A DNA stretch of 64,000 nucleotides from Dehalococcoidia bacterium (GTDB lineage Bacteria > Chloroflexota > Dehalococcoidia > UBA6926). Below the pieces are notes generated by a model. It was given only the letters and a program-made list of their open reading frames with translations. It searched no databases and was not told the DNA's origin. The number at the start of each line of letters is the position of its first letter. The stretch's first letter is position 1. A program made the position numbers and the translations under genes. The stretch is taken from positions 2,014 to 66,013 of the forward strand of contig CBDBLR010000003.1 in assembly GCA_965207115.1 (NCBI GenBank), written 5' to 3'. This document shows, one piece after another, positions 1,031-46,813 of the stretch.

Positions 1031-1055
1031 CGCGGCAACGGAAAGGAGAGACGAC

Positions 1056-2217: not shown

Positions 2218-2427
2218 ATGCAAGCAACCATGACGCTAAAAGCCTGCTGCCGGTGCGGGCAGCCCATCGCCCCCGGCGAACCGGCCATGCAGACCGCCTC
2301 GGTGGACATCGACGATTACGGACGAGTGGTCTCCTCGCCGGTGAAGTCCTACCACCTGAGCGGGCGCTGCTACGAGGACGCCAGGGCCGCCGAAGCCGCC
2401 CGCAGAAAGGCGTTGCTCGCCGCTTAG
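2218..2427 (+). CDS. small zinc-ribbon protein (69 aa)
   Basis: Strong RBS AAGGAAAGGA before ATG. CCRCG...SGRCY Cys pairs. Sits between MTase and helicase. Confidence 0.45.
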   Translation: MQATMTLKACCRCGQPIAPGEPAMQTASVDIDDYGRVVSSPVKSYHLSGRCYEDARAAEAARRKALLAA

Positions 2428-2543
2428 ACGGCTCGCCATCGAGCCGCACATCCAACGAGGCCCCTGCGCCTCGCCAAGCCTGCCCCGTACTCGATACGGG
2501 GTCATCGGACACGCCCACAACCTACATAAGGAAGGAGAACGAC

Positions 2544-4916: not shown

Positions 4917-5046
4917 GCCGCAAGGCACAGGGGGAGGACGACGCCGCATCGTGGCGTCCTCCCCCTGCTCGCCGATGTGTGTGGACTTTTTGTGTTTCTG
5001 AGGAAGCGCTTCCCTCGTTCACGGCCATGTGTGTTGGCCTTTTTGT

Positions 5047-5076
5047 TTGTCTCGAAGCCGCCGGTAATCGTATAAT
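5047..5076 (+). promoter_or_regulatory. near-consensus sigma70-type promoter (TTGTCT-18 nt-TATAAT)
   Basis: -35-like TTGTCT 5047-5052, 18-nt spacer, perfect TATAAT 5071-5076, about 40 nt upstream of ATG 5116. Confidence 0.5.
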
Positions 5077-5115
5077 GTCAGATAGTGTGCGTTCCTAGTA
5101 CGCAAAGAGGTGAGC

Positions 5116-5379
5116 ATGACAACACGCCCCCGCGACGAGACGGCCCGCATCGGGAAAGAGATATATGAGAGGGACATTCGCCATCTTGTCGAGGCGGACC
5201 ACCATGGGGATGTCGTCGCCATCGACATCGGCAGCGGATGCTATGCCCTCGGCAAGAATGCCATTGACGCGTCCGAAGGACTGCGGGACCAACACCCGGG
5301 CGCCCAAGTCTGGCTGATGCGGGTCGGACACCGGACGCTGTATCGCTTCGGAGGCAACTCTCTTCGGGGAGCCGGGTGA
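5116..5379 (+). CDS. small hypothetical protein (87 aa), upstream partner of retropepsin-like protease
   Basis: SD GAGGTGA before ATG 5116. Stop TGA overlaps the next start (ATGA coupling). Confidence 0.5.
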   Translation: MTTRPRDETARIGKEIYERDIRHLVEADHHGDVVAIDIGSGCYALGKNAIDASEGLRDQHPGAQVWLMRVGHRTLYRFGGNSLRGAG

Positions 5380-5750
5380 TGGAGGGTGTCGTCAACGGCC
5401 GTCTCGAAGCCATCATAACAGTTTTCCTGCTAGGCTCTGCGGGGCATGCGAGAGAAATCGACGCCGTGGTTGACACCGGCTTCAACGGCTTTCTGACCCT
5501 GCCACCGATGCTGGTAGCTGACTTGGCGCTGCCTGTCGTAGGTGAGGGCGAAGCGGTCCTCGCCGATGGCAGCGAGGCTGTCTTTGACGTGCATAGCGTC
5601 ACGGTGCTCTGGGATGGTCAACCGAGAGCCGTAGAGACTGGGGCGGTTGGCGGGGACCCGTTGGTGGGAATGGCTCTCATGGAAGACCACGACTTGAGAA
5701 TTCGAGTGTGCAACGGCGGGCGAGTGCTTATAGAGGCTACGTCACAGTAA
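5379..5750 (+). CDS. retropepsin-like (clan AA) aspartic protease, standalone about 120-aa type
   Basis: Catalytic motif VVDTGFNGFLTLP (D-T/S-G) and size match bacterial/archaeal single-domain retropepsin-like proteases. Start overlaps upstream stop. Confidence 0.7.
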   Translation: MEGVVNGRLEAIITVFLLGSAGHAREIDAVVDTGFNGFLTLPPMLVADLALPVVGEGEAVLADGSEAVFDVHSVTVLWDGQPRAVETGAVGGDPLVGMALMEDHDLRIRVCNGGRVLIEATSQ

Positions 5751-6032
5751 GACTGCCGCACATGGGTCGCTTCGAACGCCCCCAAGTCCACTTCTCATAG
5801 ACTGACATTTTCATTGAACAGGTAGACCCTGACAGAATCATTGAACAACAACAACTAGCCTCCGTTCATCTTGACATCTCCGTCCAGATTGGCGGATACT
5901 CTACGCTGGTTTCATGTGACTTGCGTTGATTACAGCTAGAAAATATAGCGATCCAGCGCCCGCACCGCGTCGTGGCATAGGCCGGGCGACCAGGGAGGTT
6001 TGACGACATGACTAACCTGCTGAGGAGCTCTA

Positions 6033-6045
6033 CCCCCCCCCCCCC
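6033..6045 (+). repeat. homopolymeric C13 tract in 5' leader of giant surface-protein gene
   Basis: 13 consecutive C read directly; ends 14 nt before ATG 6060. Confidence 0.85.
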
Positions 6046-6059
6046 GATTTTCGTGGGGA

Positions 6060-9000
6060 ATGCCTGTCGTGAGACGCCCGGCAAGGACCTTCCTCGCCTT
6101 GATGCTGGCTGTGGCGGCGTTGTTTGCGCTGCTGGTCGGCGGGACTGAGAACGCCTCCGCCCAACAACAGTCGCAGGCGCTGGTCAGCAACATTGGTCAG
6201 TCCGACAGCGGGCGGGGCGCATGGGGCAACGACTATGCCCAGGCGTTTACCACAGGCAGCGAGAGCACGGGCTACACGCTGAACAGCGTCGATATCGAGA
6301 TCGCGGGGATCAACGATTTCTCTGCTCTTTCTTCGAAACTAACGGTCACCATCCGCAGCGGTTCCGGCATTACTCCGGGTGCGGTGGTCGGCACCCTGAC
6401 GAATCCCTCCAACCGGATCTTCACCTCGGACCAAACGCTCAACTTCGCTGCGCCCGGGGCGGGCATTGACCTGGCGGCGGACACCAAGTACTGGGTCATG
6501 GTCGACGTGACCGGGAACATTTCGGGCCAGACCAATAGCGACGGCCTGCGCAACACGGCATCGGACGCCGAAGACTCCGGCGCCGCGGCCAGCTGGAGCA
6601 TTGCCGACGACAGCCGGCACCGGACCCGGACCTCAACCGGCGCCTGGACCACCTCTACCGAATCCATGAAAATCCGGATCGTCGGCGGCGTGAAGCCGCC
6701 GCTCATCAGCAACCTCGGTCAGGCGGACACCGGCGGCACGGGGTTGAATATCGACCAGGCCCAAGCGTTCACCACAGGTGGCAACGGCGGGGGTTACACG
6801 CTAACCAGCGCCGATTTGGTAATCGGCCTGAACAACGATTCTGCTCTCTCATCGAAACTGACGGCCACCATCCAGAGCCCGCTGGGCACGGTCATCGGCA
6901 CTCTGACGACTCCCGCCATCCCAACGACGAACTCGAATCAAACGGTCAACTTCGCCGCGCCCGGGGATGGCATCGACCTGGCGGCGAACACCACATACTG
7001 GTTGGTGTTCGACAGTACAGGAGTCTCAACGGGTGATGCTAGTACCGGAGCTACCCCATCGTCCGCCGAGGACTCCGGCGGCGCGGACGGCTTCAGCATC
7101 GCCAACGACAGATGGTACCGGTTCCAGAGCGATACTTCTTGGACTCAGATCGGCGGCAGCGCGCTGAAAATCCGCATCATCGGCGGCGTGAAGCTGCTTA
7201 CAGTGAACGCCGACGGCAGCTACACGGTGCCCGAGGACTGGGCGCTGCTCCCGGCGGGCTTCGGGCCTGGGGACCGGTTCCGGCTGATGTTCATGACGCA
7301 GGGTATGGAAAGTGCGCTTCGAAGCGACATCGGGTTCTACGACACGTATGTGCAAGGCGAGGCGGAGAGCGGGCACGGCGCCATCCGGCCGTATGCGGAG
7401 CTGTTCAAGGTGGTGGGCTCGACCTCGGCGGTGGACGCCCGTGACCACCTGGACATGAACCCGAGCAGCGACGGCGCGGGCCATCCCGTCTACTGGCTGC
7501 GCGGCCCCCGCATCGCGGATGACACCGCCGAGTTCTGGTCGGACAACTGGCAGAACTGGACGATTGCCAACCGCCGCAACGCGAACGGGAACGAGATGAC
7601 CGGCAGTGCGAGAGGCGACTGGCACTGGACCGGCACGCGAGCGGACGGGAGGGGGCACGCCTCCTTGCATCTGGGGAGCAACGACCGGGTTATGCGGGGC
7701 CGGTTCCTGAACTTCACCTCCGACCGGAACCCGCTCGACCACACCGGAACGCCCCGGGGCCAGGACCACTCCTTCTACGCCATGTCGCCGGTGTTCGTCG
7801 TGGATGGCCTCACCTATCTGGACCCTGGCAGCAACCCCCAGACTGGGAAACTCGTCGAAATCGACAAGACCCGCTTCAAGGTGGACGAGCCCGCCAGCTG
7901 CGGGGTGAACGAGGGCCGCAAGCAGAACGAGCGTGATAGTGATAGAGAGGGTAAGTGGGAGTCAACCATCGCGGACGACACGACGTACTCGTACAACGTG
8001 CGGCTGTTGCGGGACCCGGCGCTCGACCCGAAGATCGACACGGTGAAGGTTGAAGTGGTGGGCGGCAGCCCGCCCGACTGGTGGACGGCGCACCGGGCAG
8101 GGTTTGTGACGGTGGAGGACAAGGCTCCGGATATTGAGCCCAAGCAGGTCCTGCATTTCGATTCGTCCAACTGGGACCAGTGGCAGAACGTCCAGCTGCG
8201 GATTCACTGCGCGGACCACTTCCACTTCGGCGATGTCACCTGGCGGCAGTTCCGGCACGTCAGCTACACAAACAACAAGAGAAGGGATGGTAGGACTTTC
8301 CTGCAGAACGAAGAGCCGGTGGTGAAGGTGAAGGTGTTCGACAACCGGATACCGGCGTTGATGGACAGCTACAGCCACGAACTGAGCATGCAGGCGGAGA
8401 CCAACGAGTACGGCCGCCGTGGGGTTGAGACCGAGGTCATCAACTACGTGTACTGGCAGTGGAAGTTGCCCGGCGTCACGGGCAACGTGGACAGCGATGC
8501 GGACAAGCACTTCTCCCACTGGCATCTGCGGCTGCTCGCGGACAATAGTGTTGGTGGCAATGCACCGGACTGGGTCAAGAACGTCTCGACCGACGAGGGG
8601 TACTCCTTCAATCCGGACGGCAGATACAAGGCTGGGATGCGGATGCGGGGTCTGCCGACCAAGACGCCGTTCACCGCGCCTCCGAACAAGCAGTACCGGC
8701 TCGACATCACTCCGGTGACCCTGCGGGAAGAGATGGCGGAGGGCGCGAAGCTGACCGTCTGCATAGAGATGCGGGACGTGCGTCCAGACTGGGACACCCC
8801 CAACTGGCGGGCGTACTACATCCCCTGCACGCCGGCGCTGAATGCCCTGAGCCCCCAGCAGATGGCCCCGCCGGTGACCCCGACAGTGTTCATCGCGGGG
8901 GCCGGGGGCGGAGATGAAGGGCAGGGCTCCGTCTTCTTCATCAACACGAACCCCAAGCCCAGGTCCCCGCTGAAGGTGAATGTGGAGGTCACGGCCACGG

Positions 9001-12000
9001 GCGACTACGGGGTGACGACGGGGACGCGGACCATCACGATCCCGACCACGGGCCTCTACGACCTGAACATCGCCACCGTGGACGACGAGGTGGACGAGGA
9101 CGACGGCACGGTGACCCTCACCCTGCGGGATGGCGACGGCTACATCGTCGGCCCGGGGAACACGGAGACCACCGACGTCTTCGACAACGACCTGCCGCTG
9201 GCGCCGGCCATAGTCACGCCCGCGGTGAACGTCACGGGGGCCTCCGGCGGGAACGAGGGCGAGGACGCCGTCTTCACCCTGGAGGCGAGCCCCAAGACGG
9301 ACGCCGCCCTGGACGTGAACATAGAAGTCACGGCCACGGGCAGCTACGGGGTGAAGCCGGGCAAGCGGACGGTGACGATACCGGCCTCGGGCAGCCTGAG
9401 GCTGACCATCCCCACCAGGAATGATGGCACGGACGAACCCGACGGCACGGTGACCGTGACCCTGCAGGCCGGGGACGGCTACGAGATCGGGGCGCAGGCC
9501 TCGCAGAGCGCGGACATATTGGACAACGACCTGCCACCGGTGCAGGTCACAGTCGCCGACGCCATAGCGCAGGAGGGCGACGACCTGGAGTTCGTGATCA
9601 GCCTGGACCGCGCGGCGGACCACCAGGTCATCGTGCACTACGTCACGCTGGACTGGGATGCCTGGCATCCGGACGACTACGCCCAGGCCCTCGGCCACGT
9701 GACGTTCGCGCCGGGCGAGACGCAGCAGACGGTGCGCGTCCCGACAGTGGTTGACAACCGGGACGAATGGGGCCATGAGGAGGGGCAGGAGCGAATGCTC
9801 TTCCAGGTGACGGGCGTCGAAGGCGGCGAGGACGGCGACGATGATACCATCGGGATCATCAGCGACGACCCGGTGGACACCACGCCGAAGCCGGAGCTGA
9901 GCATCAGCGGAGGCAGCGGGATCACCGAGGGCGGCACGGCCACCTTCACCATCACCGCGAGCTTTGCGCCGGAAGACCCCATCACCGTCAAGGTGGGGGT
10001 GTCCCAGGGCGGGGACTTCGGCGTCTCGACCGGCACCAAGACGGTGACGGTGAGCGGCACGTCGACGACCTACACCGTCACGACTACAGACGACAGCGCC
10101 GACGAGCCGGACGGCTCGGTGACGGCGACGCTGCAAAGCGGCAGCGGCTACACCGTGTCTTCCTCGAATGGAGCGGCGTCGGTGTCCGTGGCCGACGACG
10201 ACCTGCCGCCGCCGGTGGCGAGCATCACCGGAGGCAATGGGATCACCGAGGGCGGCACTGCCAGCTTCACCATCACGGTCAACCCGGCCCCAACCAGTCC
10301 AATCACGGTCAAGGTGGGGGTCTCCCAGAGCGGGAACTTCGGCGTCAGCACCGGGACCAAGACGGTGACGGTGAGCGGCGGGACGGCGACCTACACCGTG
10401 ACTACCATCAATGACAACGCCGACGAGCCCGACGGCTCGGTGACGGCGACGCTGCAAAGCGGCAGCGGCTACACCGTGTCCTCCTCTAATGGAGCGGCCA
10501 CGGTGGCCGTGGCCGACGACGACGTCACGCCTGAGGTGAACGTCACCAGCGCGGCCAGCGGACCGGAGGGTCAGGACGTCACCTTCACGCTGACGGCCAA
10601 CCCGGCCCCGGGGGCCAACCTGCCGGTGAGCGTCACGGTGACCGGCAGCGGCGACTACGGCGTCTCCACGGGAACCTGGGTCGAGACCATCCCGACCGGC
10701 GGGAGCGTCGTCGTGACGCTCACCACCACGGACGACTCGACCGACGAGCCCAACGGGTCGGTGACGCTGACGGTGAACGGCGGCCAGGGCTACACCGTGG
10801 GGTCCCTGTCCAGTGAGACGGTGACGGTGACCGACAACGACGAACCACGGCAGCCACTACTGCTGCCGGACCCCGAGGTGAGCATCACCGCAGGGAGCGG
10901 GATCATCGAGGGCGGCACTGCGACCTTCACCATCACCGCCAACCCGGCGCCAAGCAGCCCCATCACGGTCAACGTGGGGGTCAGCGAGAACGGCGACTTC
11001 GGTGCCAGCGGCGCGGCCACGGTCACGGTGAGCGGCGCGAGCACGACCTACACCGTGACAACGACCAACGACAACGCCGACGAGGCCGACGGGTCGGTGA
11101 CGGCGACGCTGCAAACGGGCAGCGGCTACACCGTGTCCTCATCGCAGGGGGCGGCCTCCGTGGCCGTGTCCGACGACGACGTGCCCGAGGTGAGCATCAC
11201 CGCAGGCAGCGGGATCACCGAGGGCGGCACGGCCAGCTTCACCATCACGGCCAGCCCGGCCCCGGCCAGCCCCATCACGGTCAAGGTGGGGGTCAGCGAG
11301 AACGGAGACTTCGGGGCCAGCGGGTCGGCCACGGTGACGGTGAGCGGCGCGAGCACGACCTATACCGTGACCACCATCAATGACAACGCCGACGAGGCCG
11401 ACGGGTCGGTGACGGCGACGCTGCAATCGGGCAGCGGCTACACCGTGTCCTCATCGCAGGGGGCGGCGACGGTTGCCGTGTCGGACGACGACGTGCCCGA
11501 GGTGAGCATCGCCGCAGGGAGTGGGATCACCGAGGGAGGCACGGCCAGCTTCACCATCACGGCCAACCCTGCCCCGGCCAGCCCCATCACGGTCAAGGTC
11601 GCAGTAAGCGAGAACGGCGACTTCGGGGCCAGCGGGTCGGCCACGGTGACGGTGAGCGGCGCGAGCACGACCTACACCGTGACCACCACCAATGACAACG
11701 CCGACGAGGCCGACGGCTCGGTGACGGCGACGCTGCAATCGGGCAGCGGCTACACGGTGTCCTCCTCACAGGGGGAGGCTACCGTTGCGGTGTCGGACGA
11801 CGACGTGCCGACCGACGGCAACAGCGACACCCTGACGGTGTCCGTCGCGGATTCGGAGAGCGCAGGTCCGGGAGAGTTCCTCAAGTTCACGGTCTCGGCC
11901 AGCGAGACCGCCCAGCAGGATGTCACCGTCACGTTCACCGTGAGCAACATCGGCGGCTTGATTCAAGGCTTGGACTACTGCATCCTGCCCTCGGATGAGG

Positions 12001-12224
12001 AGCCCGACGCCAACTTCCGGTGCATGTTCCTCCCCTATGAGCATGACAACGAGGGAGGCCAGGTGACCATCGCCGCGGGCGAGGACAGCGCGACGGTCTA
12101 CATCTGGATCGACCGGGACGCCCGGGTGCCCTCCGGCCAGCCGCGGATCTTCGTCGATCTCACCGAGGTGGAGGGAGCGAAGGAGATTACCGATGGACTT
12201 GGAGAGGGCCGGGTCGAAAGATAA
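6060..12224 (+). CDS. giant secreted surface protein (2054 aa): signal peptide, two N-terminal ~175-aa repeat domains, central globular region, ~10 Calx-beta-like tandem domains
   Basis: N-terminus MPVVRRPARTFLALMLAVAALFALLVGGTENASA-QQQ (signal peptide, AxA cleavage). Repeats of ~100 aa ending ...TVTIxDNDxP / ...VAVSDDDVPEV, typical of Calx-beta. High DNA identity between repeats. Confidence 0.85.
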   Translation: MPVVRRPARTFLALMLAVAALFALLVGGTENASAQQQSQALVSNIGQSDSGRGAWGNDYAQAFTTGSESTGYTLNSVDIEIAGINDFSALSSKLTVTIRSGSGITPGAVVGTLTNPSNRIFTSDQTLNFAAPGAGIDLAADTKYWVMVDVTGNISGQTNSDGLRNTASDAEDSGAAASWSIADDSRHRTRTSTGAWTTSTESMKIRIVGGVKPPLISNLGQADTGGTGLNIDQAQAFTTGGNGGGYTLTSADLVIGLNNDSALSSKLTATIQSPLGTVIGTLTTPAIPTTNSNQTVNFAAPGDGIDLAANTTYWLVFDSTGVSTGDASTGATPSSAEDSGGADGFSIANDRWYRFQSDTSWTQIGGSALKIRIIGGVKLLTVNADGSYTVPEDWALLPAGFGPGDRFRLMFMTQGMESALRSDIGFYDTYVQGEAESGHGAIRPYAELFKVVGSTSAVDARDHLDMNPSSDGAGHPVYWLRGPRIADDTAEFWSDNWQNWTIANRRNANGNEMTGSARGDWHWTGTRADGRGHASLHLGSNDRVMRGRFLNFTSDRNPLDHTGTPRGQDHSFYAMSPVFVVDGLTYLDPGSNPQTGKLVEIDKTRFKVDEPASCGVNEGRKQNERDSDREGKWESTIADDTTYSYNVRLLRDPALDPKIDTVKVEVVGGSPPDWWTAHRAGFVTVEDKAPDIEPKQVLHFDSSNWDQWQNVQLRIHCADHFHFGDVTWRQFRHVSYTNNKRRDGRTFLQNEEPVVKVKVFDNRIPALMDSYSHELSMQAETNEYGRRGVETEVINYVYWQWKLPGVTGNVDSDADKHFSHWHLRLLADNSVGGNAPDWVKNVSTDEGYSFNPDGRYKAGMRMRGLPTKTPFTAPPNKQYRLDITPVTLREEMAEGAKLTVCIEMRDVRPDWDTPNWRAYYIPCTPALNALSPQQMAPPVTPTVFIAGAGGGDEGQGSVFFINTNPKPRSPLKVNVEVTATGDYGVTTGTRTITIPTTGLYDLNIATVDDEVDEDDGTVTLTLRDGDGYIVGPGNTETTDVFDNDLPLAPAIVTPAVNVTGASGGNEGEDAVFTLEASPKTDAALDVNIEVTATGSYGVKPGKRTVTIPASGSLRLTIPTRNDGTDEPDGTVTVTLQAGDGYEIGAQASQSADILDNDLPPVQVTVADAIAQEGDDLEFVISLDRAADHQVIVHYVTLDWDAWHPDDYAQALGHVTFAPGETQQTVRVPTVVDNRDEWGHEEGQERMLFQVTGVEGGEDGDDDTIGIISDDPVDTTPKPELSISGGSGITEGGTATFTITASFAPEDPITVKVGVSQGGDFGVSTGTKTVTVSGTSTTYTVTTTDDSADEPDGSVTATLQSGSGYTVSSSNGAASVSVADDDLPPPVASITGGNGITEGGTASFTITVNPAPTSPITVKVGVSQSGNFGVSTGTKTVTVSGGTATYTVTTINDNADEPDGSVTATLQSGSGYTVSSSNGAATVAVADDDVTPEVNVTSAASGPEGQDVTFTLTANPAPGANLPVSVTVTGSGDYGVSTGTWVETIPTGGSVVVTLTTTDDSTDEPNGSVTLTVNGGQGYTVGSLSSETVTVTDNDEPRQPLLLPDPEVSITAGSGIIEGGTATFTITANPAPSSPITVNVGVSENGDFGASGAATVTVSGASTTYTVTTTNDNADEADGSVTATLQTGSGYTVSSSQGAASVAVSDDDVPEVSITAGSGITEGGTASFTITASPAPASPITVKVGVSENGDFGASGSATVTVSGASTTYTVTTINDNADEADGSVTATLQSGSGYTVSSSQGAATVAVSDDDVPEVSIAAGSGITEGGTASFTITANPAPASPITVKVAVSENGDFGASGSATVTVSGASTTYTVTTTNDNADEADGSVTATLQSGSGYTVSSSQGEATVAVSDDDVPTDGNSDTLTVSVADSESAGPGEFLKFTVSASETAQQDVTVTFTVSNIGGLIQGLDYCILPSDEEPDANFRCMFLPYEHDNEGGQVTIAAGEDSATVYIWIDRDARVPSGQPRIFVDLTEVEGAKEITDGLGEGRVER
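10872..11807 (+). repeat. three near-identical 312-bp (104-aa) in-frame tandem repeats inside giant gene
   Basis: Unit begins CCCGAGGTGAGCATCACCGCAGG at 10872, 11184 and 11496. Minus-strand shadow ORFs also recur with a 312-nt offset. Confidence 0.9.
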
Positions 12225-22712: not shown

Positions 22713-24377
22713 TTATTGAGAGAGTCCTCCACCTAGCTCGCGGTGCATTCTGCGCAGAAAATCTACAATCTCGCGCAATCCTGACTCTGCTTCATCGACA
22801 CTGAGACGACTTGCCATTTCCTCGGCAAGTTCAGGCTTCCATGAATTCTTCGCGGCCTTTCGGCCAACGAGTTTCCTGATGGTCGATTCCACGCTAGAGT
22901 TCGACACAAGGTCATCTGAATTAAGCTCGACATCGTAAAGAGTTTCCACAGCCTTCTGCAAGGTATCCACCGGATAATGGTCTTCCAACGTCCCCCTGGC
23001 TAGTATCTGACAGTTTTCTGGCACGACATGACCCTTGTCAATTGCCTCCTGTGCCTCGACTTCGGCATCTTTATCTAGAATGAGGAACAAAGGTAGACCT
23101 GCTTCCCGACCTACTTCGGCCCAGAACTCAATCTTCCTTCTTCCTCGCGGGTATCCATTTGCTGAAATCACCTTGACGTGGCGCTCAGCAAGCGAGGCTC
23201 CAATCAGATCACTTATTCTACTGTAAAACAAGTTGTCTGAGAGGCCTTCAACCAGCAAAATGGCGTCACAGAATAGAATGTCGCTAGGCCTCATACCAAT
23301 GCCAAACAGTGTGTGCTGGAGGCCCGCGATATCGTCTAGCCGCTTAACTTTTGTTTCAGTTGACGGCTTGCTGACGGAATACAAACCCTTGAGTGGCGAG
23401 TATTCTACCAAGAATGGAGAGTGAGTAGCTATGAATAGCTGCTTGCCACTTTCGGCGATTTCTGTCAGATATTGCCCGACTTGCTTAATGAGACCAGGGT
23501 GCAAGTGTGTCTCCGGCTCCTCAATGACAATTAGCGGGCCACTGCTCTCAATTTGATCAACTAATTTGAGGGTATTCTGTGTGCCTTCGCCCGTCATGCC
23601 CAGCGAAACCGTTACGTCCCCTTCCTCCACCTGAATTGAGGAGTCTACTCCCACCAGTCTGTGGCCATTGGGAGTGAACCTTTCAAATTGTTGGCCCAAC
23701 TTCGTCCAGGGGCGGCGTTTCAGTCCCTTAGATTGGGACGAGATCCAGAGCTCCTGTGCCTGTTCGTCGTCGACTATGGTCGGACGTTCCCTAAATCGGT
23801 CAGACCAATCCGGGCGAGATTCGGAAGTCTGAACGACTGTTAGGCTGTACCTAAGGAGGTCTGAGAGTCGCTGAACCAGGTCAGCAATCGTGACTGAGAC
23901 CGAAATGTTGGATTCCACCAACAAAGCAGAGTCGATTTGACTATAGACCTCCTCTCCATTCCGTATGTAGTCGATGCCGTCAAATCTCAGACTATCTATC
24001 ACCCAAGTAATTGATGTACCCGCCAGATGGAAGCCCTTTTCTATGTAGACTTCCGGGCTGTAATCGAGTTGGAAAAGCTCGTCGTTGCCAAAGAGTTGCC
24101 CCCATTCATCCTCTGTTAGTGAAAGTGTGGCAGAAATGGTGGAAGGTGCGTCGACATAAGCATCATGTGCAGGGAAGAGGTGCTGGAACTCGTCGATTGC
24201 TCCCAATTCCCTTTCCATATCGGGGCCGAATTCAAGGAAGAGAAGAGACATGGCGTCAATAATATTTGACTTGCCCGAGCTATTCTTGCCAATGAAAACC
24301 GCGAGACCCGGTAACTCACGCAACTCAACGTCAATAAGGCTTGTGAAGTTGCGCACATGAAGAGTCTTGATTTTCAA
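22713..24377 (-). CDS. OLD-family (overcoming lysogenization defect) ABC-ATPase + TOPRIM nuclease, standalone (P2 Old / GajA-like); probable TTG start 24377 (alt GTG 24401)
   Basis: N-term KIKTLHVRNF…FIGKNSSGKSN (Walker A); LIVIEEPETHLHP (Walker B/D-loop); ATHSPFL (H-loop); TOPRIM LLVEGLSD … LILDKDAE. Gene GC ~48% vs ~64% flanks. SD AAGGAG before TTG. No adjacent UvrD-like helicase. Confidence 0.8.
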   Translation of the reverse strand: MKIKTLHVRNFTSLIDVELRELPGLAVFIGKNSSGKSNIIDAMSLLFLEFGPDMERELGAIDEFQHLFPAHDAYVDAPSTISATLSLTEDEWGQLFGNDELFQLDYSPEVYIEKGFHLAGTSITWVIDSLRFDGIDYIRNGEEVYSQIDSALLVESNISVSVTIADLVQRLSDLLRYSLTVVQTSESRPDWSDRFRERPTIVDDEQAQELWISSQSKGLKRRPWTKLGQQFERFTPNGHRLVGVDSSIQVEEGDVTVSLGMTGEGTQNTLKLVDQIESSGPLIVIEEPETHLHPGLIKQVGQYLTEIAESGKQLFIATHSPFLVEYSPLKGLYSVSKPSTETKVKRLDDIAGLQHTLFGIGMRPSDILFCDAILLVEGLSDNLFYSRISDLIGASLAERHVKVISANGYPRGRRKIEFWAEVGREAGLPLFLILDKDAEVEAQEAIDKGHVVPENCQILARGTLEDHYPVDTLQKAVETLYDVELNSDDLVSNSSVESTIRKLVGRKAAKNSWKPELAEEMASRLSVDEAESGLREIVDFLRRMHRELGGGLSQ

Positions 24378-24596
24378 CTTGGACAGTCTCCTTGCTCCCA
24401 CCCGCCTCTCATCTTACGATTGCCAGCATGCCTGATGACCATATCTTGTGTATTTTAGCTTATGTGTACGTATGTAGCAATCTAGAATCGCCCTTCTGCG
24501 TTGACAGGCATGGGGCAAGAATCACTTAGCTGGAATAGCGTACATTGGCAAGTTAGTCGTGAGTGAATTCAACAATCGACGGCCGCGCACTCCCCC

Positions 24597-25280
24597 TCAA
24601 ACCCTCTCTACTTGCCCAACCTCCACCCCTAACACCACGTCCAACACCTCTAGAATCAACTGCGTCGGCACACGGTCCCCGATATCCACCCCGACGTAAC
24701 CCCAGATCACACCGCCGTCCGGTTGGATGACGAACGTCGCGGGCGCGGCCACACCGTCCCCCAGCAGATTGAACACCCCGTAACTCTTCGACACGTCCTC
24801 GCTCGTGTCCGCCAGGATCGGAAACTCCGCCCCCGCCATCACCTCCATCCGCTCGGCATCGACCAATAAGTCCGTGCTGATCGCCGCGAGGCCGACGTTC
24901 CGGCTCTCAAACTCGTCGTAGAAACTCTGCAACTCGACCAGTTGCTGCTGGCAGATGCCTCAACCGTAGCTGCGATAGAAGACCACCACGAGCGCGTCGC
25001 GCCCCGCCAACAGATCATCCAGCGTATGCCTCTCGCCCGTGCCCGTCGAAAGCGAGAAATCCGGCGCTTGTGGCGCTTCGGGCTCCGGAATCTCTGTTGG
25101 AACCACGGTGGGCGAAGGCAGAGGCGTGTCCGTCGGGAACGGCGTCACAGTGGGTGAGGGCGCAAGAGTTGGAGCGGGTGTTGGAGTTTCCTCCGAGCAA
25201 CCCGCGACGAGGATGGCAATTGCCGCCAACATGGCTGTCAACAACAACAATTGGATGGGCACGAATCTACGGGTAATCAC
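24597..25280 (-). CDS. lipoprotein thioredoxin-fold redoxin (AhpC/TSA-TlpA-like) with in-frame TGA at catalytic Cys position: candidate selenoprotein (UxxC), alternatively pseudogene
   Basis: Track ORFs 24960..25280 and 24597..24932 are in frame (30 nt apart), separated only by TGA 24960-24962. Context …VVVFYRSYG-[TGA]-GICQQQLVEL… places the TGA exactly where redoxins carry the first Cys of CxxC. Stem-loop GCAAC-UGGUCGA-GUUGC begins 17 nt downstream. Confidence 0.5.
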
Positions 25281-25302
25281 CCCTCCATACTAATCGGCCT
25301 CC

Positions 25303-25440
25303 GCTCACCCTGAGCTTGTCGAAGGGCGACCAATATTGTCATTCCGAGCGCAGCCGAGGAATCTAAAGCCGTAATTGGGAAGCCCTCCCGCTCACCCTGA
25401 GCTTGTCGAAGGGTTCCCCGCTCCGGGATTCAGACGCCTA
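25303..25440. repeat. composite REP-like element (B-C-B-A')
   Basis: Two copies of GCTCACCCTGAGCTTGTCGAAGGG flanking GTCATTCCGAGCGCAGCCGAGGAATCTAAAGCC. Confidence 0.75.
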
Positions 25441-30955: not shown

Positions 30956-31338
30956 TCATCGATTCATCTGCGATCTGTGCCATCCTCCTAAACGAATCTG
31001 ACGCCGACCACTACGAAGATGCAGTAATAGACGCTGATGTCCGCCGCATGTCTGCGGGGAGTCTTCTGGAAACTTCAATGGTCATCGAAGGCCGGGCCGG
31101 ACTGTCGGGCGGAGATGAGCTTGATGCGTTCATCGAGCGCCACACAATCGAAATCGTCCCCGTAACGCCTGAGCACGTCGCCGCCGCTCGACGCGCCTGG
31201 CGAGAATTCGGCAAAGGCAACCACCCCGCCGCCCTCAACCTCGGCGACTGCCTCGCCTACGCCCTCTCAGAAATGACCCAAGAACCCCTCCTCTACAAAG
31301 GCCAGGACTTCGGCCAGACGGATGTTCAGCCGGCCTAA
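30952..31338 (+). CDS. vapC: PIN-domain toxin VapC
   Basis: MIIDSSAI… (Asp4), …D…LLYKGQDF…; 128 aa. Confidence 0.8.
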   Translation: MIIDSSAICAILLNESDADHYEDAVIDADVRRMSAGSLLETSMVIEGRAGLSGGDELDAFIERHTIEIVPVTPEHVAAARRAWREFGKGNHPAALNLGDCLAYALSEMTQEPLLYKGQDFGQTDVQPA

Positions 31339-33227
31339 GCCGCATCAGTCTCCTCTTCACTCTCACCCACTTCGTCAAACTCCTGCCCATCATCGACGAA
31401 CTGCTCTATAACACCTACGCCACCGACGTCAAGGGCATCTGAAAAAATCCGACGCCCGTCACCCAAGTCTCGACCCATGGCAGCACCAATAAGCGTGAGC
31501 ATTTCTTGGCCGCGTTCCATAAACGAGGCGCGAAAGTCATCAGTGTGCAAATGGTCGGGTTTGAGCCAATGAGACTCTAGGAGGGCATCAAGTTTGCCCG
31601 CGGGTACCTTGGACTGCAACGCATTCAAGTAAACCGAGGGTGCACGGCCGCCCATGGACCTATTTGTCCCTGGATCCATAGGTGTCTTGTTGATGATTGA
31701 GTCGTGCAACCACCTATCGATCCTGTTCGAAATGCACCACGCAACAGGGAATATGTGATGAATGTCGATACCCCTGTCGTCATAAGTAGTAAAAGAAAGC
31801 GACTCTGCCGTCATCCAGTCTTGGGCGCCATTCTTCAATTGTAGTGCATAGACGCCCTTGTACGCGGCGCTATTTCTGGTGCGGAGTGAAATGAGTCGCT
31901 CAGGAACGAAGTTTGCTTCGCGCAAGAAGGGTGGCTCTACGCCTGTTCGCACGTATTCAGCAACGTCGACAAGATCGCGCGCGAACTGTGTTTCGACGGC
32001 ACCCCCGTAAATTTCGCCAAAGACGCCAGACCAGTACCATCGTTCCAAGCGTTCCAATGCAATGGCCGTATGTGCCTCATGTCCCAATTCGACATATAGC
32101 ACCGCAAGCGGCACGAGTTGTGTGTTGTAAGGCACATTCCATCTGCCAAAGACATATTGGCTGCGCAGAAAATTAGCGGCCTTTATGAAGCCGTCTTCAA
32201 GTGCTTCTGCCCAACGGAGATAGTCCCTTTGCCGCAAGTCAAGGATATCCCTCTTCCTGCACCCAACTGCCCGCGCCCGGTTGTGTAGGGTGCCATCTTT
32301 GATGTCTGACCGATTGTCCTCCTGCGTTTTTAGCAAGGCAACCGCCTGCAAGAATTGATCGCCTGAAAGACCGTGCAGAACGCTGCGTTTGGAGTGCAGA
32401 CGAGTTCTCCGTTCATCCCAGTCATCGCGCAGAGAAAAACTCCCATCGACGGCAAAGGTTGCCGTAGCAAGCTCAAAGACGTTCAGGCTTACGCCGCCCG
32501 TGTTAACCTTTTCGAATACGGTGCAGACGGCTTCCTTTGGTGTTTCCTTGCCAAGTTCAATAACCGGAAGTTGATAGTTGGTGAAGTTATTGAGGACAGA
32601 TTCCTGGAATTCCTTGAAGAACTCTGGAGCCGTTCCACCCGGATGCTGACTTTCAGGGCTCGCCCAATACGCCACATACCCAAGTAGCCAATTCGTCGAG
32701 CCAAGCAGTGCCTCGGTGGGCATCATGTGCTTTTCAAACTCCCTCTCGGGAGTTGAAAGGTTCAGTACTTCTTTCCGGCCAAAATCTTCTGTGATGATTC
32801 GATTTTCTGGAAGGCTTCTTATCGCATCCTCACGATCAACTCTTGGATCCAGCGCCGCTTGCATGTCGACGTAGTACCACCGCTTGATCTTGCGTCTGCG
32901 GCTGTCGCTTGTGTCGACTGCGCCCGGATGTCGCAAAGCCTGGTAGAGGGAAGTGAGCCGCTGCTGGCCATCGAGAAGATATGATTCTGGAGAAATCGCC
33001 CCTTCACTCGTAGCACCCTCAATTAGCCGAGACTTGAGGCTTATATCCCCCCCCGCCTCCAGCGTCATCACGGCGCCTATTGGGAAGCCTCTTGAGATGC
33101 TGGCGAGAAGAGCGCGGATTCGGTCGTCGTCCCAAATCCAACCTCGTTGAAAGTCCGGCAATTTGATCTTTCCGGACTCAACGGAGTCGAGGACCTGCGA
33201 CAGCAGCCTAGGATTGGTGTCAAACAT
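31335..33227 (-). CDS. GmrSD-family type IV (modification-dependent) restriction endonuclease-like protein (DUF262 + DUF1524/HNH)
   Basis: N-terminal DUF262 motifs FQRGWIWDD and LLDGQQRLTSL; C-terminal His-Me finger …IDIHHIFPVAW…N. Gene GC ~52% vs ~65% flanks. Confidence 0.8.
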   Translation of the reverse strand: MFDTNPRLLSQVLDSVESGKIKLPDFQRGWIWDDDRIRALLASISRGFPIGAVMTLEAGGDISLKSRLIEGATSEGAISPESYLLDGQQRLTSLYQALRHPGAVDTSDSRRRKIKRWYYVDMQAALDPRVDREDAIRSLPENRIITEDFGRKEVLNLSTPEREFEKHMMPTEALLGSTNWLLGYVAYWASPESQHPGGTAPEFFKEFQESVLNNFTNYQLPVIELGKETPKEAVCTVFEKVNTGGVSLNVFELATATFAVDGSFSLRDDWDERRTRLHSKRSVLHGLSGDQFLQAVALLKTQEDNRSDIKDGTLHNRARAVGCRKRDILDLRQRDYLRWAEALEDGFIKAANFLRSQYVFGRWNVPYNTQLVPLAVLYVELGHEAHTAIALERLERWYWSGVFGEIYGGAVETQFARDLVDVAEYVRTGVEPPFLREANFVPERLISLRTRNSAAYKGVYALQLKNGAQDWMTAESLSFTTYDDRGIDIHHIFPVAWCISNRIDRWLHDSIINKTPMDPGTNRSMGGRAPSVYLNALQSKVPAGKLDALLESHWLKPDHLHTDDFRASFMERGQEMLTLIGAAMGRDLGDGRRIFSDALDVGGVGVIEQFVDDGQEFDEVGESEEETDAA

Positions 33228-33313
33228 CGAACCTCCTACCGAGTCCCATGGAATGTAGTGGATCGTAGTCTAAACGATCAAAGGGTGATTGGTTGACCCA
33301 GTCTGCCCCCCCC

Positions 33314-42361: not shown

Positions 42362-42733
42362 CACGTTCAAGTGACTACGCCTAGCGTTAGGCGTGGGGCT
42401 TTCCGTGTACTGCATGCACACGCGCGGGAAACCCCTGCATAGCGTGGCGCAGTCGGGATAAAGAGACAGGGAACAGGAGAGCGCGGGGCTCTCTAAGACT
42501 ATGGAGACTGACCGGACAAAGCAGGAAGCGCGGGAAAGTCAGCGCCTCCGGCCGCAACAAGCGGCTAACGGGAGGCTCTCCTGACACCCACGGATGGGGA
42601 GGAGCACATGCACTCACAAGAACCCTGGCAATCGCGAAGCCCAACGGGCAGCGTGAATAAACCGTTGATTTCCTCTACACTTATGAAGACGGGCCGCAGA
42701 GGCCCAAATCACAGTTACGGAAGGGGGCTTCCT

Positions 42734-45700
42734 GTGAAGCGCAAAGCACTCATTATCCTGTCGATCGCGATCCTCGCGTTCGCCATGATCCCGGCCCTTG
42801 GGGCGGGCGCAGCCGCAGGCGACGTTAAGATCGTTACGCCTGATCAGTTGGCCGATCCCGATGAAACGACCGGCGCGGCCTTCACAAGGCTGACTGGCGC
42901 CGCTTACGTCTCGGATCAGACGGGCTCGACCGAGAACCTGGAGGATGCCGGCGGCACCCTCTACGTTGTCATTGATGACAATGACTCCCAGGCCAATAGT
43001 CTGACCGGGTATAACGCATTCTTCCTCAACATTCCGGGTGCGGCCGACGGCGGTAGTCTTTTCAGGATTAATCCCGCTGATGCCGGTACGGATGGTGCGT
43101 CGCCATATGCTGCAGACGTTACCAATCCTCTTAATTCCGACGGTGAGGGTACTCTGGTTGGTGACTTCCTTTCGCTTGGTGACGACTCAGCCCGTGATCT
43201 GGATACAGAGGCTGAGGCTGATCGGGACGATATTACAGCTGAACTCCAGGTTCTTGATTCCCTGGTCGTCGGTGACGAGGATCGGTCGGGTACGGTCGAC
43301 GGCGCGGACATTGCACTTGAGCTCGGTTGGTACCGTGCTCCTGTGCGAGGTAATCCTGATGCTGTTCCCCCCACCGCGGATGTTCCGGCGCATTTCGTGG
43401 GCACAAGGTTGCTGCGGAACGTAAACGCATTTGCTGGAATCAGCAGGGCCGGTGACGGCCTCTACCTCGACAGGTCGTTCATTCCTGCGCTTGACGACAC
43501 GACTTCAATACCCACTGACGATCAACCTCAACTTCCTGATGGTGGTGGCGCGGATACTGCCTACTCGCCAGCATTGCGGATTGGCTTCAGTTCGGCCGGT
43601 GAGAACACCCTGGCATACCCGGACGATTTCAGGGTAGAGGCCCTTCAGGGCCTGAGCCGCGTCCAGGTTTCAAGCACCTCTGACGATGAGGGCATCCGGA
43701 TTGCGGCGAGTGAGAAGAGCCTCGCCACATACCGTGAGGAGATTGGCGGCGTTAGTGCGGCTGCCTTTGGCGGCAACGACATATCCAGCTTCGAGCCGGC
43801 AAATGCCGACTCGAGAGACTCCGGTACCTTCGTTGGACGCTTCGGTGTCATCCGCAACGCATTCAAGACCGCAATCGCGACGTGGAGCCCGAGCCCCACA
43901 GACACTGTTTACGCGGACGATGATGCCGATACGGACAATAACGCGGCAGAGTTCGAAGTCGGTGGTGTCGGTGGCCCGACTGCTGCGACTGCAGACGGTA
44001 CGACCAATCTCGCTACCACCACGCTCACAATCTCAGGCTTCGATGCGGACAACGTACTGAAGGCGGATTCAGTCGGTGTAGTCGTGGTGACTGACCGAAC
44101 AACACAGGGTACACCGGACGATCCACAGGAAATTCAGGTGGAGAGTTTCACGGTGGGAGATGCGAACGCTAGCGGCGAAATTGAAATAACTGTGATTACA
44201 GAAGCTACTGGCGCAACCGCCACAAACGGTTCTACTCAGGCCCCTGATACTTTCAGTGTTTCCTACACAGTCACGGCGCTAAACAACAACATCAGCGACA
44301 TGCTGATTGATCTCCGCGCCACAGAGGCGGGCGTGGTGTACGACGAAGATGATGGTCAATACGCCTTCAGGCTGCTGTGCGACACAAGCAAGCCGCTTGA
44401 TGACCAGTGTGAAGACAGGGATGCTCTGGAAGTTGCGATTTCCGGTGACACGAATACCAACGGTCACATGGCAAACCTGAGCCTTACGGGTGATGACGAC
44501 GCGACGGCACTTTCTGACCTTCTCGTCGGCGTCCAGCACGGTGACCGGCTCACGGTCTCCTACGATGACGAGAGCGCGGGCTCTCGCAGTACTAGTACTG
44601 AGGTCGACCTGGTCGCGCCGTCAGTCGGCAGCATAACGCCGGGCAACAACTCCTACATTGACGACGATTCGTTCAGCGTGCTGTTCGACGTCACCGATAA
44701 CGACTCCGGCATCCTTGAGGACTCGCACGACACGCGCAGCGCTGAGATTAAGTCGGGCCTGGCGTACGTGAGCTCCAGGGTCTTCGCCGAGGTTGGCCAG
44801 GATCCCACAACATCCAGCCCACAGGTCGATGACGACAATGACAGGGACAAGATCCTTGATCAGGACGACACGCTTTCCAACGGCGAGCGCTACGAGCTCG
44901 AAATTGATGTCGGAGACGAAGCTCAGACGACCGCCGCGAAGGGCTCAGCCAATCAGGCTCCCAAGACGGTTAGGGTCCTGGTTGAGATAACGGCCTACGA
45001 TGCTGCGCGTAACAAGTACGTCAGGTCGCTGCGCTACATCGTTGATGACATTGATCCGGTGCTGACCAAGGCCTTTACCGGCTACACCATCAAGGCTGAT
45101 GCGACCGCTGATACCGGTGAGGGAGGCTTCGTCCTCTCCGCCAACAACCAGAACGGCATCGTGCTGGTGTTTGATGATGCGGTCGCGGGCGACGTGATTC
45201 GCACGCAGGACGTCAACATCCTCGGCTCCAGTGCGCTAGCGGTGACCTGGCTGAATAACTCCGGCAACAACGCCATCAATACGACAGGTTTGGACGCGTC
45301 GCTGTTGAATGACCTGGGCCTTTCCTCAGGTACGAAGGTTGACTCGCGCCACCTCCTGTTCGTGGAGCTTTCCGACGACATCGGGACGGGTGACCGCCCG
45401 ACCGTCGAGATCGATGGCGATGACCTGACAGACCTTGCAGGCAACACGAACCGATCCGACCATCAGGCCACTCCGACGGATCGCATTGAGCCGACCTTTA
45501 CGGTGACCGTTGAGAATGCCCTCAGCAACGATTCCTTGAACATCATCATTGAGTCGTCTGAGGACCTCGAAAGGACACCGTCGGCATTCATTGAGCGGCC
45601 TCAGAGCACTGACCCGCCTGAGTCGCGACTGAATCGCCCGCTCACACCGCGTTCCGGTGCGGCCAACACGTGGACTGTTGCGGCTGATCGTTCCGGACTG

Positions 45701-46813
45701 AACCTCAACTCGCGCGCCGGTACTGAGAAGGGAATCTACACGATTACCGTCTCCGGTGTTGACGAGGCGGGTAACCAGGGCACAAACGCGATGTCGAAGT
45801 GGGAGTTGGACACCAAGGCCAACGCCCCGACCCGTGAGGGCGGCAACGAAAATGCGAACGTGGTTCAGAGTCTTGAGACCAATGAGGTCATCTTCCTGAC
45901 GATGAACTTCGACGCTGAGGCGGGTGAGTACGCCGGTGACTCCACGAATAAGAGTGTGAGTATTGACGGCCTCTCCCTGGAGAGCCTGGCAAGCGATGCC
46001 TTCACAGGCACCCCGCCAAGCATCAAGGCCGACGCAACTGTTGAGTCGACCACAGACCTGGATGCCGGCTCGGCCCAGACCTCGAACGGTGTGCGGCACG
46101 TCGTCGCCCTGTCCGAGCTCGGGCTCGGCAACTACCGCCTGAACGTGGACTTCTCGGACCAGGCTGGCAACGCCGGCAAGTTCGGGTACGTGTTCAGGGT
46201 CGTTGCCCCGGCCCCTGCTGAGGTCAACGTGGTCCCAGGGTGGTCCCTCGTGTCCATCCCAGGCACACCGCAGGATGTCAGCATCGGTGGCGTGCTTGAA
46301 GGATCGGCTGTAACGGATGTCTGGAGCCTCAACAATGAGACCAAGGTTTGGGAGTTCGCTCGCATCGATGAGAACGGCGAGTGGATGGGGACGCTGTCCC
46401 AGATCGTGGATGGCCGCGGCTACTTCGTCCGCAGCACCACATTCGACCCGATCTCGGTCCTCATAGAGCGCTTCAGCCCGCAGCGCACCCCGCCGCAGTA
46501 CCTCGTAACCTCCGGGTGGAATAGCATTGGCTACACCCCCGCAGGCGGTGAGAAGGCGATTAGCGCTGATGCCTACCTGAGCGCCCTCGGCGCAAGCGGA
46601 TGGGGCATGATCCGGACCTGGAACGCGAACGCCACGCAGTACGAGACGTACTTCTCCAGCGGCGTGATGACCGCAGGCTTCCCGGTCGGTGACGGCCAGG
46701 ATGCCGGTGCCACAGGCGCTGATGCAGACGACGTGGGTCTCGACATTGCGAAGGTCGAAGTGGGCAAGGGCTACCTGCTCTTCGCCACCCGCAACGGACA
46801 GATCGGCGGCTAA
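42734..46813 (+). CDS. large secreted cell-surface protein (possible S-layer/adhesin-like), ~1359 aa; GTG start 42734
   Basis: SD GGAAGGGGG 6 nt before GTG; signal peptide KRKALIILSIAILAFAMIPALGAGAAAG; Asp/Thr/Gly-rich beta-type sequence throughout. Function not assignable. Confidence 0.65.
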   Translation: MKRKALIILSIAILAFAMIPALGAGAAAGDVKIVTPDQLADPDETTGAAFTRLTGAAYVSDQTGSTENLEDAGGTLYVVIDDNDSQANSLTGYNAFFLNIPGAADGGSLFRINPADAGTDGASPYAADVTNPLNSDGEGTLVGDFLSLGDDSARDLDTEAEADRDDITAELQVLDSLVVGDEDRSGTVDGADIALELGWYRAPVRGNPDAVPPTADVPAHFVGTRLLRNVNAFAGISRAGDGLYLDRSFIPALDDTTSIPTDDQPQLPDGGGADTAYSPALRIGFSSAGENTLAYPDDFRVEALQGLSRVQVSSTSDDEGIRIAASEKSLATYREEIGGVSAAAFGGNDISSFEPANADSRDSGTFVGRFGVIRNAFKTAIATWSPSPTDTVYADDDADTDNNAAEFEVGGVGGPTAATADGTTNLATTTLTISGFDADNVLKADSVGVVVVTDRTTQGTPDDPQEIQVESFTVGDANASGEIEITVITEATGATATNGSTQAPDTFSVSYTVTALNNNISDMLIDLRATEAGVVYDEDDGQYAFRLLCDTSKPLDDQCEDRDALEVAISGDTNTNGHMANLSLTGDDDATALSDLLVGVQHGDRLTVSYDDESAGSRSTSTEVDLVAPSVGSITPGNNSYIDDDSFSVLFDVTDNDSGILEDSHDTRSAEIKSGLAYVSSRVFAEVGQDPTTSSPQVDDDNDRDKILDQDDTLSNGERYELEIDVGDEAQTTAAKGSANQAPKTVRVLVEITAYDAARNKYVRSLRYIVDDIDPVLTKAFTGYTIKADATADTGEGGFVLSANNQNGIVLVFDDAVAGDVIRTQDVNILGSSALAVTWLNNSGNNAINTTGLDASLLNDLGLSSGTKVDSRHLLFVELSDDIGTGDRPTVEIDGDDLTDLAGNTNRSDHQATPTDRIEPTFTVTVENALSNDSLNIIIESSEDLERTPSAFIERPQSTDPPESRLNRPLTPRSGAANTWTVAADRSGLNLNSRAGTEKGIYTITVSGVDEAGNQGTNAMSKWELDTKANAPTREGGNENANVVQSLETNEVIFLTMNFDAEAGEYAGDSTNKSVSIDGLSLESLASDAFTGTPPSIKADATVESTTDLDAGSAQTSNGVRHVVALSELGLGNYRLNVDFSDQAGNAGKFGYVFRVVAPAPAEVNVVPGWSLVSIPGTPQDVSIGGVLEGSAVTDVWSLNNETKVWEFARIDENGEWMGTLSQIVDGRGYFVRSTTFDPISVLIERFSPQRTPPQYLVTSGWNSIGYTPAGGEKAISADAYLSALGASGWGMIRTWNANATQYETYFSSGVMTAGFPVGDGQDAGATGADADDVGLDIAKVEVGKGYLLFATRNGQIGG

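Follow-up and report, generated by a model that had tools for sequence, protein, structure and literature searches.

We analyzed a 64,000-nucleotide stretch of DNA from a Dehalococcoidia bacterium (GenBank assembly GCA_965207115.1, contig CBDBLR010000003.1, positions 2,014 to 66,013 of the forward strand), here called the window and numbered from its first letter, in which a candidate selenoprotein gene occupies 24597..25280 on the minus strand. Read from 25280 to 24597, the locus translates as a single frame of 228 codons, 227 plus a terminal TGA at 24599-24597; it starts with GTG at 25280, and its sole internal stop is the TGA at 24962-24960, codon 107. The two open reading frames (ORFs) listed for the region, 24960..25280 and 24597..24932, belong to this same reading frame. 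The original prediction, made from the letters alone, had held them to be one in-frame reading broken only by the TGA, and the translation bore this out, as did a domain that runs across the TGA: with Cys written for the stop codon, residues 71-191 (24708..25070, minus strand) match the Pfam family AhpC-TSA (PF00578) with 88.2 bits against a cut-off of 26 (E = 5.5e-25), and the Redoxin family (PF08534) is matched as well (E = 6.3e-19). This region is thus delineated as a thioredoxin-fold AhpC/TSA (redoxin) domain, as it is by a sequence search of the PDB and by the structural model of a relative. The internal TGA stands in the context FYRSYG-U-GIC-QQQLVELQ, where U is selenocysteine (Sec), the predicted reading of the codon. 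The putative redox motif, U107-G-I-C110, occupies 24951..24962 (minus strand), with the Sec codon at 24962-24960 and the Cys110 codon at 24953-24951; it is defined by the translation, by the conservation of the TGA and by the aligned column of Cys in Cys-form relatives. Downstream of it, the codons of Q-Q-L-V-E-L-Q contain a hairpin at 24929..24945 (minus strand), a candidate bacterial selenocysteine insertion sequence (bSECIS), which we examined by folding energy, covariation, RNAalifold, synonymous diversity and a recoding control. An exact-sequence look-up of the 111-amino-acid C-terminal ORF gave no match, and a scan of the window for further selenoprotein candidates with an in-frame TGA gave none that was convincing.

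We searched the contigs of genomes and metagenomes for related loci, using two peptide patterns, [YF]GV[FY]NLLGD and G[ILV]C[QR][QG]QL[VG]EL, neither of which spans the Sec codon, and retained the best 80 loci of each pattern search. The codon aligned to the site was TGA in 160 of the 160 retrieved loci, with open and conserved frames on either side, and most of these loci encode a UGxC motif. TGA also stands at the same codon in six further loci (L001-L005 and L012), and it is present in a paralogue (L005-L011) that is fused to a cytochrome c domain. The hosts are mostly metagenome-assembled genomes (MAGs) of Dehalococcoidia/SAR202, with Anaerolineae, Caldilineaceae, one Latescibacterota and two Spirochaetia among the others. 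Each of 18 distinct close orthologues (70-97% identity) has exactly one in-frame stop and conserved protein after it; the sequence 3′ of the TGA is, on this comparison, under purifying selection. TGC or TGT in closely related strains, or additional disabling mutations, had been named in advance as outcomes that would speak against a selenoprotein; close strains have TGA, and L004 alone among the relatives carries such mutations (see below). Thus, the in-frame UGA is flanked by conserved coding sequence in both directions, and the gene has TGA-containing homologues in other organisms.

Protein databases hold the same genes in pieces. N-terminal fragments (P0003-5) stop exactly at FYRSYG/L/R and C-terminal fragments (P0001 and P0007) start just past the site; the DNA behind them has TGA at the same codon, and an infC-rpmI-rplT neighbourhood is common to them. 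The public annotation of every relative examined either cuts the gene into two ORFs or calls W at the site. A look-up with rplT found the close relatives on sponge-derived contigs and on a 1.99-Mb Dehalococcoidia chromosome (OY762213.1). At a few loci, the redox motif is shifted around the same TGA: L082, L149, L165 and L172 read RCG-U-GPD (CxU, with no downstream Cys), L171 reads SIC-U-GPT, L133 reads U-THS, and L091, L093 and L159, from Spirochaetia, read FW-U-TYC.

With the 120 residues that follow the TGA as query, a HMMER search of the full library returned 551 relatives, of which we inspected the best 150 representatives at 50% identity. About 100 of these 150 are fragments of about 100 residues beginning just past the TGA, and 48 are full length. 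Most of the full-length representatives have a CxxC motif (FYRGxWCPxC, FYRGFFCGIC and similar) with Cys exactly at the site, two have W there and five have no Cys there. The W stands in two public predictions, P0040 and P0069, and presumably stems from gene prediction under a translation table in which TGA is Trp. Cys forms are rare and more distantly related. The nearest ones are P0006 (FGCGVCQQQLVELQ), a full-length protein found in the protein search and encoded at locus L013, and P0032, encoded at L179; the site codon of both is TGT, and the 60 nt around the site in L013 (GCA_037442985.1) are identical to those of its Sec twin, L162, except for TGT in place of TGA. Alignment with Sec- and Cys-containing homologues, which the original prediction had proposed as a check, therefore shows that Cys homologues align Cys with the UGA. 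The claim that the TGA lies at the first Cys of a CxxC motif holds for the CxxC-type relatives; it fails for the AhpC/AhpE peroxiredoxins, in which the aligned residue is the Thr of TxxC.

The predicted hairpin is indeed present, 17 nt after the U of the UGA, and its best representation is a stem of 6 bp, GCAACU (24945-24940) with AGUUGC (24934-24929), around a 5-nt loop, GGUCG (24939-24935), with a folding energy of -8.0 kcal/mol. If the U of the UGA is counted as nucleotide 1, the first base of the hairpin is nucleotide 18, so that the stem is separated from the UGA by 14 nt. In a covariation alignment (A2) of 134 distinct 60-nt segments, we scored a 7-bp helix at this place and found it paired in 93.5% of cells, as compared with 81.5% after column shuffling (none of 500 shuffles reached the observed value) and 13-39% in controls with slid partners. 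Compensatory double changes account for 111 cells against 38.9 expected and occur in four of the seven pairs. In one pair both partners are synonymous sites, namely the third base of a Gln codon (CAR) and the first base of a Leu codon (YUG), and the pair is GC in 70 segments, AU in 51, GU in 10 and AC in 3. Another is held by coupled amino acid replacements, Leu/Glu to Ile/Asp (CG in 119, AU in 14); the codons of the conserved helix motif Q-L-x-E-L make up the SECIS, and its constraint on the protein is visible here. RNAalifold recovered the core of the helix independently. When the same peptides were recoded with the codon usage of the family, 67.4 ± 1.3% of cells were paired and the mean minimum free energy (MFE) was -3.3 kcal/mol, as against -9.1 kcal/mol observed. 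Among the close orthologues, synonymous diversity at codons +5..+11 is 0.077, the lowest of any 7-codon window in the domain, and 0.33 elsewhere.

The published bSECIS model has an apical loop of 3-9 nt on an upper stem of 4-16 bp, a G in the first two loop positions, usually as G[G|U], a distance of 16-37 nt from the UGA to the apical loop, and an MFE of -7.5 kcal/mol or lower (PMC13188914). The window hairpin falls within all four of these limits, having a 5-nt loop on a 6-bp stem, GG at the start of the loop and 20 nt between UGA and loop in addition to the energy given above. Across the family, the element takes the form of 7 bp with a 3-nt loop, for which the distance is 21 nt, or of 6 bp with a 5-nt loop; position 25 is G in 138 of 140 sequences, position 26 is either U (105) or G (28), together 133 of 140, and 81% of the 140 reach -7.5 kcal/mol, the family mean being the -9.1 kcal/mol already mentioned. 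To the published model we added covariation as a test for structure under selection, and the compensatory changes described above provide it. The window hairpin also agrees with what has been described for hairpins bound by SelB, in which the stem has 6-8 bp and a conserved G of the loop lies some 20 nt beyond the UGA (PMC4605307); the loop of the window copy is at about this distance. Rfam gave no match at its gathering thresholds anywhere in the window, and a permissive scan of 24800-25050 gave chance-level matches only.

In common with fdhF-type elements and the bSECIS consensus, the hairpin sits in the coding region right after the UGA, has an upper stem of 6-7 bp and carries a small apical loop whose first base is G and whose second is G or U, at a distance of about 20 nt from the UGA. 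The GGUC of the loop may bear a fair resemblance to E. coli fdhF; what the family itself conserves is a G and then U or G where the small loop begins. The fdhF SECIS of E. coli has a bulged U. In the family consensus, a C-G pair closes a 3-nt loop, GUN, on a stem of 7 bp; the window copy differs in opening that pair, which gives GGUCG.

The protein begins with a predicted lipoprotein signal peptide (residues 1-28; 25197..25280, minus strand), which consists of an n-region with RR, a hydrophobic core and a lipobox, L-V-A-G-C28; we infer cleavage and lipidation at Cys28. About 42 residues rich in Pro/Thr (SEETPTPAPTLAPSPTVTPFPTDTPLPSPTVVPTEIPEPEAP; 25071..25196, minus strand), a tether of a type also found in the orthologues, would connect the lipid anchor to the catalytic domain. 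A hydrophobic N-terminal segment is present in 122 of 126 distinct family members, directly followed by a lipobox Cys in at least 70; some members have a transmembrane helix and about 400 further residues in place of the lipobox. The family is consistently predicted, from these sequences, to be extracytoplasmic. A twin-arginine (Tat) signal, TRRF, was considered and rejected, as the RR is not conserved in orthologues. For the fold, we relied on an AlphaFold2 (AF2) model of P0006, the natural Cys-form relative, and not of the window protein itself. Its mean pLDDT (predicted local distance difference test) was 85, exceeding 90 in the domain, and Bcp4, AhpE and ResA matched it with template modelling (TM) scores of 0.85-0.90, ResA at 0.85-0.89 and AhpE with a root-mean-square deviation of 1.4-1.6 Å; since the alignment behind the model was built largely from AhpE-like sequences, these fold matches are biased to peroxiredoxins. 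With topology as predicted and the fold taken from P0006, the protein has the makings of a ResA/TlpA-type enzyme, namely a thioredoxin fold that is anchored to the membrane outside the cytoplasm and carries a redox dyad.

The window gene is, by its sequence, a member of a described class of selenoproteins, the Prx-like thiol:disulfide oxidoreductases (pfam00578, UxxC or UxxU; reference member WP_010940744.1), an assignment made by the published operational definition, since the field delimits selenoprotein families by domain and Sec motif. This family is attributed to Kryukov & Gladyshev 2004 and is listed in PMC9312934 and PMC13188914; as 'Prx-like 1' (pfam00578, UxxC), it counted 225 sequences in the Global Ocean Sampling (GOS) survey and is abundant in marine metagenomes (PMC2398784). 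The window protein shares with the class the AhpC-TSA domain, Sec as the first residue of UxxC (U107-G-I-C110), a bSECIS immediately downstream and Cys homologues with CxxC; the clade to which it belongs differs in being centred on Chloroflexota, uniformly predicted to be membrane-anchored and almost entirely Sec-containing (160 of 160 in the DNA searches). Extracytoplasmic thiol-disulfide oxidoreductases of the ResA, TlpA and CcmG type (PDB 1st9, 1su9 and others) resemble it in having a membrane-anchored thioredoxin fold outside the cytoplasmic membrane with a dyad at the N-terminus of helix 1, and in that members of our family adjoin genes for cytochrome c and copper assembly. They differ from it in that the window protein has Sec for the first Cys and FYRxxxUGxC instead of WCxxC, and in that its reductase role is a predicted one. 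The SelL-related family NF040769, which is related to eukaryotic selenoprotein L, has a Prx-like thioredoxin fold and a redox dyad in the same place, but the window protein scores below its cut-off and is therefore not a member by the NCBI criterion.

On this comparative evidence, we take it as almost certain that the 'stop' codon at 24962-24960 specifies selenocysteine in the active site of a redoxin. The selenoprotein reading of the original prediction thus gains support from the conservation of the TGA, the Cys homologues, the covariation, the low synonymous variation and the fit to the bSECIS model, and we hold it very probable that the locus is a single gene whose product is a thioredoxin-fold oxidoreductase that contains selenocysteine and is anchored to the membrane outside the cytoplasm.

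Several observations weigh against this interpretation. Neither selA, selB, selD nor a gene for tRNA-Sec was seen within the 64-kb window or the flanks examined. Among 30 long ORFs of the window, Pfam scans detected neither SelA nor SelB nor SelD; tblastn with an approximate E. coli SelD query gave no match in the window or the related loci; and ARAGORN found no tRNA-Sec in the window (where it found no tRNA at all) or in 173 loci, although tRNA-Sec may escape this program because its Chloroflexi form has an unusual 8/4 structure (PMC5389517). In the 76-nt stretch after the UGA of the window, the MFE prefers another fold (z = -0.49), and 9% of synonymous recodings of QQLVELQ fold equally well as single sequences; the significance of the hairpin comes, so far as sequences can tell, only from the comparison across the family. 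Both nearest Cys forms, L013 and L179, retain the hairpin (-9.1 kcal/mol in L179), so that the hairpin alone is no proof of current Sec decoding; they appear, from their sequences, to be recent TGA-to-TGT conversions with a fossil SECIS. The orthologue in L004 (a TARA scaffold of 334 kb), 79% identical, has 1-nt insertions at 9906, 9933 and 10244 within the domain. The NCBIfam matches all lie far below their cut-offs, the best being SelL_rel_redox (NF040769; residues 71-168, 52.3 bits against 120, E = 5.1e-14), followed by ResA (38.4 bits against 170, which precludes membership at the family level), AhpC (37 against 272), BCP (31 against 140) and PrxU (28.8 against 270). Within the clade of the window gene, the neighbours are rplT on the upstream side and a variable nuclease on the downstream side, and they are uninformative on function. 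Finally, the closest solved sequences and folds are those of AhpE, Bcp/PrxQ and other peroxiredoxins.

This last point bears on what the enzyme does, as the same selenoprotein might be mainly a peroxidase, that is, a peroxiredoxin-like reductase of hydroperoxides or sulfenates on the cell surface. Sec is good at peroxide reduction, as in the glutathione peroxidases; the best Pfam family is AhpC-TSA, and M. tuberculosis AhpE was the best match in the PDB sequence search (E = 1.4e-9). In the alignment with AhpE, Cys110, the Cys of UxxC, falls on the peroxidatic Cys. However, in the same alignment Sec takes the place of the Thr of TxxC, Arg that of the catalytic Pro and Pro that of the catalytic Arg116; because these residues are not kept, the protein is no peroxiredoxin proper, and it also differs in this respect from PrxU, whose motif is TxxU. 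The motif is of the thioredoxin type, UxxC, with CxxC or WCPxC in the Cys forms, and ResA-type oxidoreductases match nearly as well (E = 5e-7 in the PDB search), the structural comparison being tilted to peroxiredoxins by the AhpE-like alignment noted above. The genes that recur next to the family are, moreover, those of copper and cytochrome assembly and not of oxidative stress. We therefore consider a mainly peroxidatic role rather unlikely, though a serious competitor to the thiol:disulfide oxidoreductase.

A much less probable alternative, to which we give very little credence, is that the UGA is read as Trp, Gly or Cys, under a reassigned code or by near-cognate read-through, in which case the hairpin would do no more than stimulate read-through. 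The two database proteins with W at the site would agree with it, as would the absence of visible Sec machinery from the window. Yet the W calls are explained by prediction under the TGA=Trp table, and TGA ends 8 of the 34 long ORFs in the window, so that there is no genome-wide reassignment; an alternative genetic code was rejected on this count. The site is that of the catalytic nucleophile, where only Cys or Sec is chemically sensible, and the Cys forms use TGT; the geometry and the loop G of the hairpin match a SECIS of the SelB type. As to the machinery, published data give good indirect support to Sec use in the lineage: SelA, SelB and SelD are present in all five SAR202 bins and in the other Chloroflexi bins from the metagenome of the sponge Aplysina aerophoba (PMC5649159, Table S4), and an orthologue that is 94% identical to the window gene (L095) lies on the MKWU assembly of this metagenome. 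Two Dehalococcoidia MAGs are among the ten bacteria richest in selenoproteins, with 49 and 46 genes (PMC13326102). Our literature search found no paper that pairs 'selenoprotein' with 'SAR202'.

It is barely conceivable that the TGA is a sequencing error or the mark of a pseudogene, the two ORFs being remnants that yield no full-length protein. The gene is cut in two by gene callers everywhere, L004 is frameshifted, and indels lie near the site in two long-read contigs, L003 and L012. But L003 and L012 are error-prone contigs whose neighbouring housekeeping genes are frameshifted as well, and their indels are for this reason assembly errors. TGA occupies the same codon in 160 of 160 loci from many assemblies, technologies and phyla, amino acids after it are strongly conserved, and the hairpin accumulates compensatory substitutions; the conservation of the TGA across loci and of the sequence after it excludes error or decay for the window gene. 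L004 itself retains both TGA and hairpin despite its insertions, and may be a decaying copy or an assembly error. Automated annotation gives two separate genes, of which the first would encode a short Pro/Thr-rich lipoprotein that is secreted and stops at the TGA, and the second a 111-residue cytoplasmic protein starting from TTG at 24932, but the idea has virtually nothing to recommend it, as the split would cut one thioredoxin fold through its active-site motif, the Pfam and PDB alignments cross the TGA, the 27 nt from TGA to TTG are in frame and form the most conserved coding stretch of the gene, and full-length Cys forms exist.

For the selenocysteine-containing oxidoreductase that we favour, the following course of events can be proposed. 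The UGA at 24962-24960 is, as the comparative evidence shows, decoded as Sec; the hairpin at 24945-24929, 14 nt after it, offers a small G-rich loop and would recruit SelB·GTP·Sec-tRNA(Sec) to the ribosome. The 227-residue precursor would then be exported, cleaved and lipidated (LVAG|C), and the Pro/Thr tether would keep the domain on the outer face of the cytoplasmic membrane. By what is known of thioredoxin-fold proteins with CxxC, Sec107, at the N-terminus of the first helix, should be the attacking nucleophile of U-G-I-C. By analogy, a Sec107-Cys110 selenenylsulfide would form as disulfides or sulfenic acids of envelope proteins are reduced, and a membrane electron shuttle of the CcdA/DsbD type would re-reduce it. 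Export, chemistry and clients are steps that we infer, the identity of the clients being the weakest of them: they might be Cys-containing proteins of copper or cytochrome assembly.

This proposal for the clients draws on the genes next to family members in other genomes, which include CopC-CopD-cytochrome c, CtaG and CcsA proteins and a redoxin-cytochrome c fusion. Among the genome loci, the immediate downstream neighbour is a same-strand CopC-CopD-cytochrome c fusion in 13 of 77 cases and CtaG in 3 of 77; upstream, a CcsA-type protein (Cytochrom_C_asm) is found in 3 of 76 cases and YscW-like lipoproteins in 4 of 76. At L005-L011, the paralogue is fused C-terminally to its cytochrome c domain (4728-5654) and is directly followed by a 773-residue CopC-CopD-cytochrome c protein (5709-8030). 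More broadly, we entertain the tentative idea, which we think possible but not probable, of a coherent, Chloroflexota-wide clade of surface redoxins, anchored by a lipid or a transmembrane segment, in which Sec is essentially obligatory and which serves as an envelope reductant for the assembly of copper and cytochrome oxidase, a selenium-dependent analogue of TlpA/ResA.

The surroundings of the gene within the window are of a different kind. The slot downstream of it is variable, orthologous genomes having an HNH_2 endonuclease there instead. Defence-type genes flank the locus at 22713-24413 (minus strand), 31335-33269 (minus strand) and 996-2093 (plus strand), the types being an OLD-family nuclease (AAA_21 + TOPRIM), a GmrSD restriction enzyme and a DUF6094/N6 methyltransferase. 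Intergenic DNA of the window contains seven minus-strand copies of a 23-nt repeat, TTCGACAAGCTCAGGGTGAGCGG, with at most 3 mismatches, where none is expected by chance. Exact copies lie at 25301-25323 and 25388-25410, just upstream of the selenoprotein gene, and further ones at 22463, 30499, 40379, 42095 and 42181; translation of this repeat explains the spurious N-terminal extensions in database ORFs of the orthologues. Three long ORFs on the plus strand, 6024-12224, 42569-46813 and 2211-4916, encode 2066, 1414 and 901 residues with almost no Pfam match, the only one being a Calx-beta domain in the 2066-residue ORF. Since the window also contains a sortase gene (52805-53815), these three may be surface proteins. 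The stops of the 34 long ORFs of the window are TAG (14), TAA (12) and TGA (8), TGA being the rarest despite a G+C content of 61%.

The class of selenoproteins to which the gene belongs is already known, as is the habit of gene callers of cutting such genes in two, and the gene reveals no new mechanism or kind of system. It merits annotation as one selenoprotein in place of the present public calls, which are two meaningless ORFs or a protein with W at the site. It adds to the known class a large branch that uses Sec almost exclusively and is predicted to be exposed on the surface, in Dehalococcoidia/SAR202 and sponge symbionts, whose richness in selenoproteins has been recognised only recently. 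It is also a clear example of an RNA element within a coding region that shapes the choice of codons and even of amino acids. If the family is indeed a clade of envelope reductants, the supply of selenium would be tied to the biogenesis of the respiratory chain in the abundant Dehalococcoidia/SAR202 of the ocean and of sponges.

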